From Mobula hypostoma (taxonomy: Eukaryota), in NCBI RefSeq assembly GCF_963921235.1, contig NC_086097.1:6324001-6388000 (forward strand): a DNA stretch of 64,000 nt, read 5' to 3'. The translations under genes were made by a program, and so were the position numbers. The notes beneath the pieces are model-generated. The model did not search any database and had not been told where the DNA came from. It saw nothing but the letters and a program-made list of their open reading frames with translations. Positions 53,466-57,771 of this stretch are shown in pieces; the stretch's first letter is position 1; each line of letters begins with the position of its first letter.

Positions 53466-53689
53466 TTCAGTCAATGAGTGAAATGGGAGCAGCTGGTAAG
53501 TGAGAACGTGGACAAAAGACTATTGGAGTTGCAAAATGTACAGAAGTCAAGTCTGCCCAATAGGTCAGACTGGGTATGATCTCCACTTCTAGAGAAAAAA
53601 AGAGAGAGGACAAAATCTGAGGGGATATTACAAATGGTGACTGATATAGTCAGAGAAATCTAGATCCCTGAATTTATATAATTCAACAT

Positions 53690-54200
53690 TTGAGTCTACA
53701 GATATAGAAAGAATAAAGGTGAAGTGTTATACTCAAAGTTCCATTGGACCTTGCTGTAAGAATGTGGAGATCACAACTGGGAGGTGAAAACGGAATGGAT
53801 GGAAAATTAAAGTGGCTGACAATGGGACGTTAAGGGTCGTCCTTGCAGACTGAACACAGATGTTCAGAAAATCATCTCCCACTCTACGTTTGGTTCCTCT
53901 GATGTGAGGAGAAGGACAACTGAATCACTGCTTCACCTGGAAAGGCTGTTTAGATTGCTACATGATGGCAGGGAAAGTGGTGAAAGGCCAACTGTTGTAT
54001 CGCCTGCAGTTGCATCTCAAAGTGCAGAAAGGAGGGGGTGGTTGGTGGGAATGTATGAATGGACCAGAGAGTTGGAAAGCAAACAGTTCACACAAATTAG
54101 TTAATGGGGAAAAGATGGTGAGATGTGCCTGGAGGTGGAATCTCTGAAAATGCAGAGAATGGCTTGTCAAATACAGGCACTGTTTGCATGGAAATTGAGA
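53690..54200 (-). mobile_element. Old Penelope GIY-YIG fragment
   Basis: tgttcagaaaatcatctcccactctacgtttggt resembles TKRRVGDDFLN (cf. TRRKLGDCFAEH). Confidence 0.6.
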
Positions 54201-55726
54201 AAGTGGATGTTTACATCGCTGCCTCCGGAAGAAGTTGGAAGATTACGGCCTATCCAATTCCCTTCTGAATTTATTCAAAATATTAGGATGCATCCAATCT
54301 GACCCAGATGATTAACAAATTTCAACTTCAGTAAACTTTACTGATACTTCTGGTCTACTGATTCTTCACTTATCCAATGTCTCAACAAGATCCTCCTCGT
54401 TCACTGTTTCCAAGCACCCTAGTAGGCTTTCAGTAATTTAACATTTTCCTGAGATTCCAATGTAAACTCCCATTGTTGTCCTCAGTGGGCTACACACTTC
54501 CAGGATATGCCTATTACTATTAATATGCCTAATGCAGTCTCTTGGTTTCCCATATCTATTGATTCTTTAATAACCAGCCTGGTTAACAATCTGACACTAG
54601 TCACATGAAACATTTTGCTTCCATCCCCTTTCCGACATGTTGGTCCATGGGCTCCTCTTGTGCCACGACGAAGCCACTCTCAGGGTTGAGGAACAACACC
54701 TTATATCCTGTCGGGTTACCCTCTAACCTAATGACGTGAATATCGATTTCTCCTTCCGGTAAAACAAAATCCCTTCCCCTTCCTTCTACCTCCATTTGTC
54801 ACAACCACGGATTTGGCACCGCAGTAGATACGGCAATTGCGCTTGTGAATATGCACGTGTCAGCTAATTATTATTTCATTGTAATAGTATTTAACTCTAT
54901 ACTTGTCGTCGTAGTGCTTGTCGAGACTTGAACACAGCAATGCTTCGCTGCTGGCATTCCACCTCGCCCGAGAAATTGGACTGTCGAGTCAACTGACTCT
55001 GAAGACTCGCTGTATTCATTTTATTCTTAGTTGTTCTTTTCAGTCATTTACCATTTGAGAATTTTCGTTAACAGCCCTGCTTGGCTTAGCGTTTATTGTT
55101 TTCTTTCATTGCTAAACTGGCTGGTTCTCTGCAGATCTGTTTAATTTGCTACATGGAAGTTCAATTTTCCCATTCTGTACCATGACTTTCATCACGAGGT
55201 TAAAAATACTCTTAATAGGGTTACTTTACTTGTGTGCTTGCACACCGCAGCCAGGGATTAGCTTTTGGATTAGGGCTCTTCCGGAATTTACACTATTGAC
55301 TTGGATGATAATTTGTTGAATCAATTGATAAGCTTGCTTGAAGCGCTCATTTGTTATGCAGACCTGAGTCACGGAACCACAAAGCTGGGAACCTAGATAC
55401 ATGAGACTTGAAAAGCTTGGACTGGATACCAGAGAAAGACTAGAGACTGAAGCTCGGCAGGTAGACTTGGGACTCTCGGAATGCAGGGTCAGGATATGCA
55501 CTGAGAATAGAAGGCACCCTCTTCTCAGGCCACCAATACCAAAATGTCACTGTTCAGACTTTGCTGGGTCTATTACTTGCCAAGATCCTTCCGTCACGCT
55601 GGAGACAGAAATAAGAGTTCACACATAGGAATACCCACAGAACATTGTTGCCTCAATAAATCACTCTGACCAATGAATCTCATGGACAAGGTCAGCTACT
55701 CTCTCTCCACTGGGTCCATCGTTGTG

Positions 55727-55740
55727 TGGTCAAGACTTGC
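55727..55740 (-). promoter_or_regulatory. Putative self-priming primer-binding site (Tf1/sushi type)
   Basis: GCAAGTCTTGACCA directly after the LTR pairs over 11 nt (one G-U) with GTCGAGACTTG (56035-56025), ~30 nt downstream of the TATA. Confidence 0.7.
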
Positions 55741-56158
55741 TGTCTTCTGGTTCGGATATGACCCACGTGTGGAGTGAGAGACACTGAACCAGGTCGAAAA
55801 CTCACAGACTTTAATGCGAACAGTGTTAAAGGGAAAAGAAAACAATAAACGCTAGGCCAAATAGGGCCGTTAACTAAAACTCTCAAATAGTAACTGAAGC
55901 ATACACTGCAGCTGAAAAGAACAACTAAGAATAAAATGAATACAGCTAGTCTTCAGAGTCAGTTGACTCGACAGTCCAATTTCTCGGGCAAGGTGGAATG
56001 CCGGCAGCAAAGCATTGCTGTGTTCAAGTCTCGACAAGCACTACGACGACAAGTATAGAGTTAAATACTATTACAATGAAATAATAATTAGCTGACATGT
56101 GCATATTCACAAGCGCAATTTCTGTATCTATTGCAATGCCGAATCCGTGGTAGTGACA
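55741..56158 (-). repeat. Complete 418-bp LTR (TGTC...GACA) with TATA-like box and ATTAAA
   Basis: TATTTAA at 56067-56061; ATTAAA at 55815-55810; followed by a PBS-position motif and ATGGACCCA. Confidence 0.75.
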
Positions 56159-56544
56159 CTACTCCCTTTTACCTTTTCTCACCCGCCTATTACCTCTCCC
56201 TGGGTCCCCTCCACCTTCCCTTTCTCCTGTGGTCCGCTCTTCTCTCCTATCAGATTCCTTCTTCTCCAGCCCTTTACTTGTCCCATCCACCTGGATTGAC
56301 TTATCCTCTTCCAGCTAGTCTCCTTCCTCTCCACGCGCTTTTTACTCTGGTGTCCTCCCCCTTCCTTTCCAGTCCTGAAGAAGGGTCTTGGTGCAAATGT
56401 TGACTGACTTATTCATTTTCATAAATGCTTTCCTTGTGTTTTTGTTTCCCTTATCACCCTTTATCTTTCTCTTACAGTCATGGAACCAACAGGTTATGGA
56501 GCTCAGAAACAACCCAAATAGGGTCAATGAGTTCATTGTCCGCT

Positions 56545-57165
56545 ATCAAGATTCGAGATTGTTTAATGTCATTTCCAGTACACAAGTTCAAAGGAAAATG
56601 AAATAATTGTTACTCTATATTTGATGCGGCACAAAAAACCACAATGAATATAAATACATAAGATAGCTTATATTCATAGATTGATAATGTGTCCATGAAT
56701 TGATGCCAGGTACAGGGGTATCTGTAAATAAAGTGACTGATAGGAAATGATAAAGTAGTGGTGGTGGGGGTGTTGAGTTAGTGGGTGGAGGTGTAGGTCA
56801 GCTTTATTGTTTGGGGAAAGTAACTGAGCTTTTGAGTTTGATGGTTCTGGCATAAATGCTACATAGTCTCCTCCCTGATGGGCGTGGGACAAACAGTCCA
56901 TGAGCAGGGTAGCTAGGATCTTTCATAATGTTACTGGCCCTTTTCTGGCACCTTTCTGTACAAATGTCCTTCATGGTGGATAGGCAGGTACTGGTGATGC
57001 ATTGGGAAGTTTTGACTACCCACTGTAGAGCCTTCCTGTCCACTGCAGTGCAATTCCCACACCAAGCAGTGACGCAGCATGTTAGGGTGCTCTCTAGGAC
57101 ACATCTATGAGAGGTCGTCAGTATTGATGTTCACTGCCCAGGTCTCTTCAGTCTCCTCAGAGAGT
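56545..57165 (-). mobile_element. Rex1/Babar 3' fragment
   Basis: DRKALQWVVKTSQCI..RCQKRASNIMKDPSYPAHGLF..PSGRRL. Confidence 0.88.
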
Positions 57166-57254
57166 TGAGGTAGCTGGTGCAGCCATTGATTGACACTATT
57201 TCTCTGCTAGATCAGTTTTATTATTCCCTCATTCCCAGATTCTGGCACTTACAT

Positions 57255-57460
57255 ATTCAGGAGCGGCAATTTACCATGGTCGGTTAACCTACCAGCCGAC
57301 GTGTCCTTGGGATGTGGGAGGAAGCTAGAGCACCCAGAAAAACTCATGACACCACAGGGAGTGTACATGAATTACAGACAGATAGCACTGACGATCAGGA
57401 TCAAGCGTAGGATGCTGGAGCGGTGAGAAAGCAGCTTTCCTTTCTGTTCCACTCTGCCTC
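57255..57460 (-). mobile_element. V-SINE fragment
   Basis: ttaacctacc..gtccttgggatgtgggaggaagctagagcaccc. Confidence 0.7.
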
Positions 57461-57771
57461 AGCAAGATGTGGATTTGTTTGAAATACTTTATGCTGTTTA
57501 ATACACTCAGCAAGCTCTTAATGCATTTCCAAGATAGGATTAAGTATACTTGTTGACACTGACATACACGTCTGGAAGCAGACCTGAGTAAGTATCAGAA
57601 CCAGCCGAGAGCCAGGTGCAGAACAACGTTGTTTGTTTTTGGGAGCATCACTTCATGCTTCATGTCAGCTGCTGGCACAGCAAATCTAGTTAATTTTTTT
57701 TTACCCATAGAGTCATGGAGCACTACAGCACAGAAACAGGCCCTTCGGCCCATCTGGTTTGGACTGAACTA

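Follow-up and report, generated by a model that had tools for sequence, protein, structure and literature searches.

Inverted insertions with two U3 ends derived from a non-coding Ty3/Gypsy LTR retrotransposon family of Mobula hypostoma

Known elements with inverted ends or abnormal LTR order

DIRS elements carry inverted terminal repeats and an internal complementary region, encode a tyrosine recombinase, and do not form a target site duplication (TSD); in our literature search, the term "inverted LTR" was used almost only for these elements. Aberrant products of reverse transcription are already known from retroviruses and from three-LTR elements of plants. Complex LTR insertions attributed to template switching (Sabot & Schulman 2007, PMC1950507) and the "abnormal" elements of rice (bioRxiv 10.1101/452573) have the order LTR-interior-LTR-interior-LTR with all LTRs direct, and the word "inverted" occurs in neither of the two articles. 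Inversions were found in 1-2 of 78 HIV-1 defective proviruses and were internal, according to the available part of PMC9278108. Among DNA transposons, Ginger1 generates 4-bp CCGG/CCGT TSDs and metazoan Ginger2 likewise 4-bp TSDs (Bao, Kapitonov & Jurka 2010; PMC2836005, available part); the same source gives TGTNR termini as common to Ginger and Gypsy LTRs, so that such tips do not discriminate between them.

The insert described here is located in the window, i.e., the whole stretch of 64,000 nucleotides of contig NC_086097.1 that was analysed, and belongs with several other units that end in U3 on both sides. Like the elements of PMC1950507 and 10.1101/452573, these units have an abnormal LTR order within one TSD and therefore arose prior to integration, through faulty reverse transcription or cDNA recombination; unlike those elements, they have an inverted, incomplete second LTR and terminate in U3 on either side. 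With the HIV-1 defective proviruses they would share the character of integrated aberrant strand-transfer products, with an LTR partly missing and rare inverted segments, but the units are germ-line and recur at defined junctions, and the available part of PMC9278108 describes no provirus ending in an inverted U3. Long inverted ends, TGTNR tips (TGTCA at both tips here) and the implied involvement of an integrase-like enzyme recall Ginger1 and Ginger2 as presented in the available part of PMC2836005, from which the units differ by a 5-bp TSD without CCGG/CCGT target and by ends that are LTRs. They resemble DIRS in being retroelements with inverted terminal repeats, but have TG..CA integrase-type tips, 5-bp TSDs, no internal complementary region, and a partner with a DDE-type integrase. 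Canonical LTR retrotransposons, TRIMs and LARDs have two direct LTRs, whereas the arms here are inverted. In our literature search, we found neither germ-line, TSD-flanked insertions with two U3 tips nor recurrent junction classes described.

Architecture of the window insert, its host site and its parent family

The insert comprises 1362 bp, with inverted arms at 54797-55106 and 55835-56158. Its features are as follows (window positions; strand given where assigned).

54792-54796: left flank CCATT, candidate decayed copy of a 5-bp TSD; host paralogues carry CCACT once
54797-55106, plus strand: left arm, partial LTR from nt 1 to about nt 324, delimited by the arm alignment; 14-nt deletion; outer tip is U3 nt 1 (TGTCAC)
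54920-54930, plus strand: GTCGAGACTTG within the left arm; putative transcript start and self-primer (11 nt), complement of the 11 nt after the 5' LTR in most copies
55100-55106: junction microhomology TTTCTTT, common to LTR nt 318-324 and the complement of interior nt ~634-640
55107-55728, minus strand: start of the non-coding interior (~620 nt) of the 2.4-kb family, from alignment with other copies
55729-55739, minus strand: primer-binding position CAAGTCTTGAC, CpG-decayed from CAAGTCTCGAC and complementary to LTR nt ~124-134 (36 copies compared)
55741-56158, minus strand: complete 418-nt LTR, of which the right arm comprises the first 324 nt; U3 nt 1 at the outer tip
56054-56057, minus strand: TATA, within the complete LTR
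56025-56035, minus strand: putative R start, within the complete LTR
55810-55815, minus strand: ATTAAA, within the complete LTR
56159-56163: right flank CTACT, candidate decayed second TSD copy

The original prediction of inverted arms with TGTCAC/GTGACA ends was borne out, apart from the inner ends of the arms, which lie at 55106 (left arm; not 55107) and 55835 (right arm). The arms match at 290 of 310 aligned bases (93.5%); BLAST reports 89.5% identity across 324 columns, with the gap counted. The alignment consists of an outer block (54797-55043 versus 55912-56158; 247 nt, 95%) and an inner block (55044-55106 versus 55835-55897; 63 nt, 87%); between the two, the left arm lacks 14 nt. U3 nt 1 thus lies at both ends of the insert, the arms being inverted rather than direct, and both tips finish with GTGACA-3', like a normal U5 tip. 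From one end to the other, the insert consists of a complete LTR, the primer site, ~630 nt of interior, and inverted LTR nt 324 to 1; the remaining ~940 nt of the interior and the PPT are missing. The region 55741-56158 on the minus strand is a complete LTR, as predicted, since this ~420-nt block is found at other loci as two direct copies. The TATA-like motif, the ATTAAA motif at 55810-55815 and the ATG GAC CCA string are likewise present as described. The left arm, read in the plus sense, extends over the TATA-like box and the putative R start and lacks ATTAAA and U5; its matches at other loci are LTR sequence only. As inserted, the unit combines two inward-facing putative promoters with an inverted repeat of ~310 bp.

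At the inner junction, ordinary copies read ...GACAGG followed by TTTCTTTCAT, and the LTR reads ...TTATTGT followed by TTTCTTT. The 7-nt complement AAAGAAA/TTTCTTT at this point is the only pair of its kind in the element, as AAAGAAA is found at one place in the element and TTTCTTT at one place in each LTR.

The host repeat, a putative Penelope pLTR, is uninterrupted across the insert position in 25-28 paralogous copies, in agreement with the predicted continuation of the repeat on both sides of the insert. The proposed 5-bp TSD fared less clearly: CCATT and CTACT are each one transition away from the CCACT that occurs once in the host paralogues, but the duplication was not confirmed, since the fit to 25 paralogues after removal of k = 0-10 bases at the flank joint was best at k = 0. 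Rfam searches revealed neither a hammerhead nor any other match at E≤1 in window positions 53500-57500, and no match at E≤1 in the loci L028, L032 and L025. Read-derived contigs under one species label span the arm/internal junction and the right tip/flank junction with 0 differences, and those under a second label span both junctions with 3 differences each. The window locus is no assembly artefact, one of two caveats attached to the original prediction. High-copy repeats with inverted arms are prone to assembly errors; nevertheless, these bridging contigs, together with the same architecture assembled at an independent locus (L032), leave a negligible probability for a collapsed or chimeric repeat.

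Judged by its sequence, the window unit is a derivative of a Ty3/Gypsy LTR retrotransposon. The parent is a very abundant non-coding element of ~2.4 kb with direct LTRs of ~420 bp, TGTCAC..GTGACA tips and 5-bp TSDs. The genome contains 4201 first-look candidates, of which the best 40 were scored, with coverage limited to element nt 304-1362. Other copies align to this region and then continue for ~940 nt to a direct 3' LTR, which in ordinary copies is preceded by the PPT GAGAGGGGGGG. Thirteen full copies of 2.36-2.50 kb have direct LTRs of ~420 nt and TGTCAC..GGTGACA tips; the 5-bp TSD is perfect in three of them and matches at four of five positions in seven. The median LTR-LTR identity of ordinary copies is 88.1%. 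An ORF scan of the parent family revealed nothing longer than 105 aa. Besides these 13 non-coding copies, the search for a related Gypsy element with direct LTRs yielded L116, a decayed 5.1-kb Ty3/Gypsy element with the LTRs, the leader and the PPT of the parent family, corroborating the assignment of the arms to a Gypsy LTR. Its broken ORF chain has the order gag, RT, RNase H, integrase zinc finger, rve, and SH3_Tf2-1, with profile matches to RVT_1 (3.8e-12), RT_RNaseH_2 (2.1e-21), Integrase_H2C2 (7.5e-19) and SH3_Tf2-1 (3.9e-11), and sub-cut-off matches to Retrotrans_gag (7.6e-4) and rve (1.5e-3). Autonomous Ginger copies have an integrase-like transposase and no RT; L116, the only coding partner found, encodes RT and RNase H.

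In most of 36 copies, the 11 nt after the 5' LTR are complementary to an LTR motif ~20 nt downstream of the TATA-like box, and no tRNA-type TGG start was found at the primer-binding position of the 36 copies. This post-LTR complement and the SH3_Tf2-1 tail of the coding partner resemble the self-priming Tf1/sushi group of Ty3/Gypsy elements, as characterized in the available part of PMC7175516; the likeness is one of sequence features alone, from which self-priming and the transcript start are deduced; the corresponding putative R runs from nt ~124 to ~365. The parent lineage, including L116, accordingly appears to self-prime like Tf1. A search of the window for tRNA genes found none.

Sister copy, further classes and phylogeny

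The second caveat, that the junction might be single-copy, did not hold either: the window-type junction is present in two copies among the matches listed, the window copy and L032 on another contig, and other inverted classes are multi-copy. L032 is full length and 81% identical to the window copy, but has unrelated flanks. It reads TTAAC-TGTCAC..GTGACA-TTAAC, corresponding to a perfect TSD of 5 bp, the TSD length of the parent family. Such a TSD at its sister copy supports insertion of the window unit as a single piece with integrase-type ends, consistent with the Gypsy-integrase-type insertion envisaged originally.

The two arms are 93.5% identical to each other within the window copy and 91.3% within L032, versus 86-88% between the copies. 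Site patterns across these arms are copy-specific at 16 sites, arm-specific at one and cross at none, and the copy-specific states common to both arms are rare in 42 ordinary LTRs. Since the arms of each copy carry private mutations together, the two copies are not parent and daughter copied as DNA. Gene conversion between inverted repeats of 310 nt could also yield arm similarity within a copy.

Units of ~550 bp with the junction at the primer site (11-nt complement) occur at no fewer than five loci. This class had been predicted from the self-priming complement and was then found, with 27 matches versus 2 for the control. The architecture was present in 8 of 9 loci fetched, and perfect TSDs flank L125 (CTCTC/CTCTC) and L119 (AGAAC/AGAAC). 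L120 was rejected as a member, as its architecture did not fit. Some primer-site units are truncated, with a left end at nt ~137; its interpretation as an RNase H-cleaved RNA end was weakened by L124, a paralogue of the C12 group that keeps more of the LTR, leaving L121 alone with this end.

A class of ~690 bp, joined at an 11/13 complement ~105 nt into the interior, comprises at least 10 loci; its junction was spanned at 10 of the best 40 scored places. All eight full copies have a TSD, perfect in three and matching at four of five positions in five. The within-copy effect is nearly absent from the 165-nt arms of these units (87.4% within versus about 86.6% between copies), and there is no left- versus right-lineage signal (L-L 86.5, R-R 86.3, L-R 86.8). 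L099 and L102 are related by a DNA-level copy from the exact left tip, with the arm differences inherited. A 2.4-kb U3-out/U3-out form with a unique junction was found at one locus, L025. L015, in which the inverted segment begins 18 nt after the LTR end and is cut off by unrelated DNA, was not counted as a class. The 5-bp TSDs of the inverted units are TTAAC, GAATC, CATGG, CCTCC, CTCTC and AGAAC, and the perfect ones of the other inverted classes abut U3 nt 1 on both sides. Complements of 11 nt and 11/13 correspond to multi-copy classes, 7 nt to two copies, and 2-5 nt to one copy, a trend that rests on four classes with the best 40 candidates scored per search and 100 places listed. Class counts are lower bounds; of 2923 tip matches, the first 100 were listed.

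Duplicated loci (L022, L031, L034, L037, L041) were left out before tree building, and the final trees and AU tests were computed without L099 (a near-copy of L102) and L114 (ambiguous junction). L108, whose matching stretch was too short, was left out of these and of the 690-bp subfamily tree. Units with the same junction did not form clades (0/200 bootstrap trees), and the window copy and L032 were not sisters (0/200), the bootstraps not having converged in either case. The window copy lies outside a group formed by L032 and two ordinary copies (98/82), and the 690-bp units are scattered among ordinary members of the subfamily. AU tests did not reject one origin for the window copy and L032 (p 0.21 and 0.44) or for the 690-bp units (p 0.087). 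An early quick tree was a star tree; a 99* clade of 690-bp units in a quick tree dissolved after addition of nine subfamily-matched ordinary copies. Recombination between co-packaged RNAs could blur such trees.

Origin of the U3/U3 units

The window insert probably represents the defective cDNA of a non-autonomous Ty3/Gypsy element that underwent a strand-switch error and was then inserted by integrase; the unusual reverse-transcription route considered in the original prediction is, in our judgement, the best explanation. The plus-strand DNA, which has U3 nt 1 at its 5' end, may fold back while still growing, or the nascent plus strand may leave its template at LTR nt 324 and anneal to the complementary patch on a strand of sense polarity. 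Copying would then run off at U3 nt 1, which requires a plus-strand DNA template and is a step of the model rather than an observation, and the resulting linear duplex with two U3 ends would be accepted and inserted by the integrase of the element. The same process at the 11-nt primer site and at the 11/13 patch would give rise to the other inverted classes; as self-priming implies complementarity between the primer site and the start of R, recurrent error would be expected there. The best reading takes most of the inverted units to be by-products without further propagation that arose again and again at complementarity hot-spots. For the window copy and L032, we favour independent formation as fairly probable over a single inverted founder, which seems rather unlikely. 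Use of the same 7-nt microhomology on two occasions would be a coincidence unless there is a real hot-spot, as we infer. Autointegration was dismissed on the reasoning that its products would have an LTR tip linked to the target, but the joint here involves LTR nt 324. By reasoning only, we likewise reject re-mobilisation of the unit through RNA, because both promoters face inward and no element-initiated RNA carries U3 in the needed sense.

It is possible, but unlikely, that the inverted unit is a non-autonomous TIR-like element which arose by one founding rearrangement and was then moved as DNA by a Gypsy-type integrase or transposase, through cut-and-paste or some other mechanism at the DNA level, as a form between LTR elements and DNA transposons. 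Such an element would account for two dispersed copies with an identical junction despite just 7 nt of microhomology, and for the ~690-bp class, with one junction and a separate TSD for each copy; the AU results are compatible with one origin, L099/L102 document copying of a unit as DNA from its exact left tip, and the tips fit the TGTNR of Ginger elements as given in the available part of PMC2836005. However, two window-type copies among the matches listed face thousands of ordinary copies, and plain DNA copying would need gene conversion to produce private mutations common to both arms. The missing lineage signal in the 690-bp arms and the failure of same-junction groups to form clades also argue against it, the primer-site class is the recurrent error predicted by self-priming chemistry, and, by reasoning, an RNA route could not restore U3 tips from inward-facing promoters. 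Excision of chromosomal DNA is not known for retroviral-type integrases. With the low copy number and the private mutations in both arms, there is no positive support for the self-propagating TIR-like or cut-and-paste family that had been suggested. Multiple copies of one architecture with independent TSDs fit re-mobilisation and repeated formation alike. A single origin of some units (the ~690-bp class and perhaps also the window type), followed by movement as U3/U3 DNA by a Ty3/Gypsy integrase, is doubtful.

An origin in situ, from two nearby insertions of opposite orientation plus a deletion or from inversion and deletion within one ordinary copy, would suit a genome dense in LTR elements and the lack of a demonstrable duplication at the window flanks (best fit at k = 0). 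It is nevertheless very improbable and largely refuted by L032, which agrees with the window copy in junction and tips and has a perfect TSD within unrelated flanks; the perfect TSDs abutting U3 nt 1 in other inverted classes, the continuity of the host repeat across the insert, and the fact that the two arms are each other's nearest relatives also contradict it. Assignment of the unit to an established class with inverted ends, be it Ginger, DIRS, or a foldback element or MITE unrelated to LTR elements, might be suggested by the long inverted ends with TGT..ACA tips, given that Ginger TIRs reach up to ~270 bp (PMC2836005, available part). This has hardly any likelihood, as the arms belong to the LTR of a family that has direct LTRs and a PPT as well as a coding partner of Ty3/Gypsy type, the right arm sits in a complete LTR followed by the leader of the family, and the 5-bp TSD is neither CCGG/CCGT nor the 4 bp stated for metazoan Ginger in the available part of that article. 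For DIRS, no TSD is expected, but TSDs are present here.

In genome annotation, units of this kind are easily taken for DNA transposons or MITEs. If the proposed strand-switch origin is right, the genome holds a fossil record of errors of plus-strand synthesis in a self-priming Ty3/Gypsy element, the primer-site complement is a built-in weak point of such elements, and the integrase accepts two U3 ends in vivo. As long inverted repeats with inward-facing promoters, the units are possible sources of hairpin RNA. They are also the kind of sequence that could evolve into an integrase-mobilised TIR transposon; if some of them did move as integrase-mobilised U3/U3 DNA, these would be living intermediates between LTR retrotransposons and Ginger-like cut-and-paste transposons.

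Architecture of the window unit and its parent family

The inverted-arm insertion with TGTCAC...GTGACA ends described in the original prediction is present at 54797–56158, with 290 of 310 aligned arm bases identical; the two arm segments are set out of step by 14 nt missing from the left arm. Comparison across the whole 64-kb window revealed no other sequence resembling this unit.

Features of the window unit (parts 1 to 5 in sense order)
54797–55043 against 55912–56158, inverted: arm pair 1, 247 nt, 95% identity
55044–55106 against 55835–55897, inverted: arm pair 2, 63 nt, 87% identity
56158 to 55741, minus strand: part 1, complete LTR
Between LTR and primer site, minus strand: part 2, single base
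55739 to 55729, minus strand: part 3, primer site
55728 to 55107, minus strand: part 4, interior
After the interior: part 5, reverse complement of LTR nt 324 to 1

Contigs from public reads of organism A bridged the arm/internal junction (55016–55186) and the right tip with its flank (56092–56223) with 0 differences, and those of organism B, which bears a different species label, bridged 55014–55155 and 56093–56196 with 3 differences each, indicating that the structure is real and predates the split between A and B; since the assembly may have been made from the organism A sample, only organism B is an independent check. At the break, ordinary copies read ...GACAGG/TTTCTTTCAT and the LTR reads ...TTATTGT/TTTCTTT, so that the joint falls within 7 shared bases. 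Throughout the element AAAGAAA is found a single time, at the break; TTTCTTT has one occurrence in each LTR, at the landing position. The host sequence (54450–54796 and 56159–56400), taken in the original prediction for a Penelope pLTR, is a CT-rich high-copy repeat, with 40 places scored at 80–86% out of 4446 first-look candidates, and an Rfam search of 53500–57500 returned neither a hammerhead nor any other match.

In the window's own assembly (3.48 Gb), the 40 scored of 4201 first-look candidates matched the unit at 82–85% within element nt 304–1362 only, the left arm being matched solely by their own LTR in reverse complement. Many loci had a second LTR of ~420 nt, ~940 nt past nt 304 and in the same orientation as the first. 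Thirteen full copies of 2.36–2.50 kb showed TGTCAC..GGTGACA tips and LTR–LTR identities of 83.8–92.3% (median 88.1%); in ordinary copies a purine tract (GAGAGGGGGGG) precedes the 3' LTR. The 5-bp target site duplication (TSD) was perfect in three of the thirteen (CATTG, CATAG, GAAAG) and matched at 4/5 positions in seven; the copies L002 and L016 matched at 3/5 and 2/5, and that of L017 was unreadable. One full copy contained no ORF >105 aa and had no Rfam match. The family is accordingly a non-autonomous LTR retrotransposon that is non-coding and very abundant. Five ordinary copies (L020, L021, L022, L027 and L037; G000:C9, 71.3–71.9 Mb) form a tight clade (100*) with 2–4 tandem copies of an interior piece of ~70–100 nt (L028 nt 1333–1433); L021 and L022 are nearly identical, and the group looks like a locally duplicated array.

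Same-strand LTR tips 4.7–5.2 kb apart were taken as candidates for a coding partner. The one locus fetched, L116, has its LTRs, the first ~75 nt past the LTR and the PPT in common with the parent family, whereas its 4.2-kb interior is unlike and holds a broken ORF chain. Its domains follow the Ty3/Gypsy order, bearing out the Gypsy label initially given to the unit.

Pfam domains of L116, in order
1, Retrotrans_gag, 7.6e-4 (below Pfam's cut-off)
2, RVT_1, 3.8e-12
3, RT_RNaseH_2, 2.1e-21
4, Integrase_H2C2, 7.5e-19
5, rve, 1.5e-3 (below cut-off)
6, SH3_Tf2-1, 3.9e-11

Further insertions with inverted LTRs

A 151-nt junction query (1466 candidates, 40 scored) found one further junction-spanning place, L032 on contig C5, a full-length copy of 1362 bp that is 81% identical to the window copy, has unrelated flanks and ends in TTAAC/TGTCAC...GTGACA/TTAAC. 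A whole-genome scan with 24 nt of the junction (≤3 mismatches) gave 28 matches against 16 for the reversed control; the two exact ones were the window copy and L032, and none of 24 inexact matches examined (of 26) spans the junction. Two two-anchor patterns diagnostic of the inverted joint had 2 and 1 matches, against 0 in each control. A query with the L032 junction (2247 candidates, 40 scored) retrieved nothing beyond L032 and the window copy. A single-copy junction, which the original prediction had named as evidence against itself, is thus not what the genome holds.

The two arms agree at 93.5% in the window copy and at 91.3% in L032, values at the young extreme of those for ordinary LTR pairs; arms from different copies agree at 86–88%. 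Alignment of the four arms gave 16 copy-specific sites, 1 arm-specific and 0 cross, with evenly spread singletons (9, 8, 13, 12). Most states that the two arms of a copy have in common are rare in 42 ordinary LTRs (1–2/42 at six window sites), the best of which carries at most 6 of 14 window-derived states, four of those six being one deletion. The arms of each copy were therefore templated from a single LTR sequence, and the sources of the two copies differed by about 5.5%; such templating rules out plain parent–daughter DNA copying, unless gene conversion between arms is invoked.

A shorter class, of ~690 bp, is represented by L096 (696 bp; TSD GAATC/GAATC), which consists of LTR, primer site, ~105 nt of interior and the reverse complement of LTR nt ~165 to 1. 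Its junction was spanned in 10 of 40 scored places; of nine loci fetched besides L096, seven are full length and two have a truncated right arm. All eight full copies have TSDs, three perfect and five matching at 4/5, three of the latter with the tip read with 1–2 decayed bases. Ordinary copies read ...GGAGACAAGC/TACAGGCAATGG here and the reverse-complemented LTR ...GCCGAAAGC/AAACAGGCAGCG, while the units read ...GGAGACAAGC/AAACAGGCAGCG in 9/9 shown; a nascent LTR-sense strand ...TGCCTGTTTGCTT annealing to AAGCTACAGGCA would form an 11-of-13 complement at the joint. The arms form a star (within-copy median 87.4%; between copies L–L 86.5%, R–R 86.3%, L–R 86.8%), and summing the site patterns over 28 copy pairs gives 85 copy-specific against 46 cross and 29 side-specific. 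The subfamily copy L114 (G000:C12:11259650-11260300) follows this junction for ~8 nt (..AAGCAAAC) before unrelated GC-rich sequence and could represent either a truncation of such a unit or a joint of another kind.

L025 (2401 bp; flanks AATGC/TTTGC) comprises 5' LTR, full interior, PPT, 30 nt of the 3' LTR and the reverse complement of LTR nt 411 to 1; no second place with its junction was found among 40 scored. L015 carries an additional inverted joint but ends prematurely in unrelated DNA. At L095 (G000:C1:42722880-42723600), element 148–577 is a 430-bp near-palindrome, 84% self-complementary end to end, in which the match to the family LTR tip is limited to the outer ~40 nt, with TGTCACAACTATGGATT at each end. 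Flanked by CATGT/GTTGT, it may have arisen by snap-back in a related family, or it may be MITE-like in derivation.

Putative self-priming and the proposed mechanism

The 11 nt past the 5' LTR lack an initial TGG; in most copies they are CAAGTCTCGAC, and their complement, GTCGAGACTTG, lies at LTR nt ~124–134, with a TATA-like motif ~20 nt upstream of it. The exact complementary run over 36 copies has a median of 7 nt and a maximum of 12 nt, the match being interrupted by CpG decay in individual copies. In Tf1/sushi self-priming the primer-binding site pairs with the initial 11 bases of the RNA (PMC7175516, in part), and the layout seen here in sequence alone is the same. We infer that the family self-primes in this manner; U3 would then be nt 1–123, and R would end just beyond ATTAAA (nt ~344–349). 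Within these putative limits the left arm (nt 1–324) includes the promoter and the greater part of R but not the poly(A) signal.

The self-priming complement predicts a further class, in which LTR end and primer site pass directly into the reverse complement of U3. The predicted 27-nt junction had 27 matches against 2 in the control, and 8/9 fetched loci show the architecture, representing at least five independent loci. Four of them (L117, L122, L123, L124; G000:C12, 10.5–11.2 Mb) are paralogues of one insertion with right flanks shared at 84–97%, indicating that this region was duplicated several times; they retain differing lengths of sense LTR. In the left-truncated L121 (G000:C5:83908900-83909580) the sense LTR starts at nt ~137, just beyond the putative 11-nt self-primer, with neither upstream LTR sequence nor an evident TSD; it might reflect run-off at a cleaved RNA 5' end and another route of entry into the genome.

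Other loci of the primer-site class
L125: complete, 555 bp, TSD CTCTC/CTCTC, arms 91.0%
L119: complete, 547 bp, TSD AGAAC/AGAAC, arms 84.3%
L118: left side truncated

All inverted classes have U3 nt 1 at both tips, a joint placed where the LTR and a downstream site are complementary over a short stretch, and a 5-bp TSD wherever both ends are intact and legible. The simplest account of the intervening steps would be an error in plus-strand DNA synthesis. Starting at U3 nt 1, the plus strand may reach the downstream site and then fold back onto its own LTR, or the nascent strand may quit its template within the LTR and anneal to the complementary patch on a strand of sense polarity, two options that the insertions do not distinguish. 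Either way, copying would run off at U3 nt 1 to give a linear duplex with two U3 ends, which integrase would insert because both tips end in GTGACA-3', the end of the normal U5 tip as well as of the inverted U3 tip. L032, together with the perfect TSDs that adjoin each of the tips in other classes, excludes rearrangement in situ. Autointegration would place an LTR tip at the joint, whereas the window joint uses nt 324.

Repeated formation or a single founder

Units sharing a junction might descend from one founder that was re-copied. A shallow tree search made the ~690-bp units appear monophyletic, but that clade dissolved once nine subfamily-matched ordinary copies were added, seven of them falling inside it; in a careful search five changes were needed, and supported branches require at least two origins. 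In bootstraps that had not converged, neither the ~690-bp clade nor, in both datasets, a clade of the window copy and L032 appeared in any of 200 trees, and L032 grouped with two ordinary copies (support 98/82). By AU tests a single origin of each group is disfavoured, not rejected.

AU tests of a single origin
~690-bp units, 5' part, 51 rows: Delta lnL 22.5, p-AU 0.087
Window copy and L032, 5' part, 51 rows: Delta lnL 14.5, p-AU 0.21
Window copy and L032, nt 304–1362, 35 rows: Delta lnL 5.5, p-AU 0.44

Against repeated formation stand the double use of the 7-nt joint, which would be a coincidence, and the putative nature of the hot-spot strength. DNA-level copying of a unit is exemplified by L099 (G000:C91:12955243-12956122) and L102 (G000:C91:9731499-9732377), ~690-bp units 3.2 Mb apart with unrelated flanks and 98.6% identity across 591 bp beginning precisely at the left tip, L099 having inherited the arm differences of L102; the two are suggestive of DNA-level copying or, equally well, of ectopic conversion. 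The right arm of L099 is interrupted partway, and by eye its left and right flanks are alike over ~30 nt. Repeated formation is nevertheless favoured, because the primer-site class is the recurrent slip expected from self-priming chemistry, class size tracks complement length, and both the window copy and L032 have arms marked by private source mutations. A further point in its favour, by reasoning only, is that we see no RNA route restoring the U3 tips of an inverted unit, since both promoters point inward.

Template-switch products flanked by TSDs are known as three-LTR complexes (PMC1950507; bioRxiv 10.1101/452573); the word "inverted" is absent from both texts, whereas the window unit has an inverted LTR. 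HIV proviruses with inversions or asymmetric LTRs are the nearest retroviral analogue (PMC9278108, in part). Ginger elements have TGTNR tips in common with the window unit, and their metazoan TSDs are 4 bp (PMC2836005, in part). Titles and opening abstract lines found for inverted LTR and retrotransposon, some concerning DIRS, do not describe the U3/U3 architecture. The initial reading as a possible LTR-to-TIR transition form is supported in part, notably as to the Gypsy LTR origin; the window unit itself is best read as an aberrant reverse-transcription product, and its interest lies in the recurrent TSD-flanked U3/U3 classes and their tie to self-priming.
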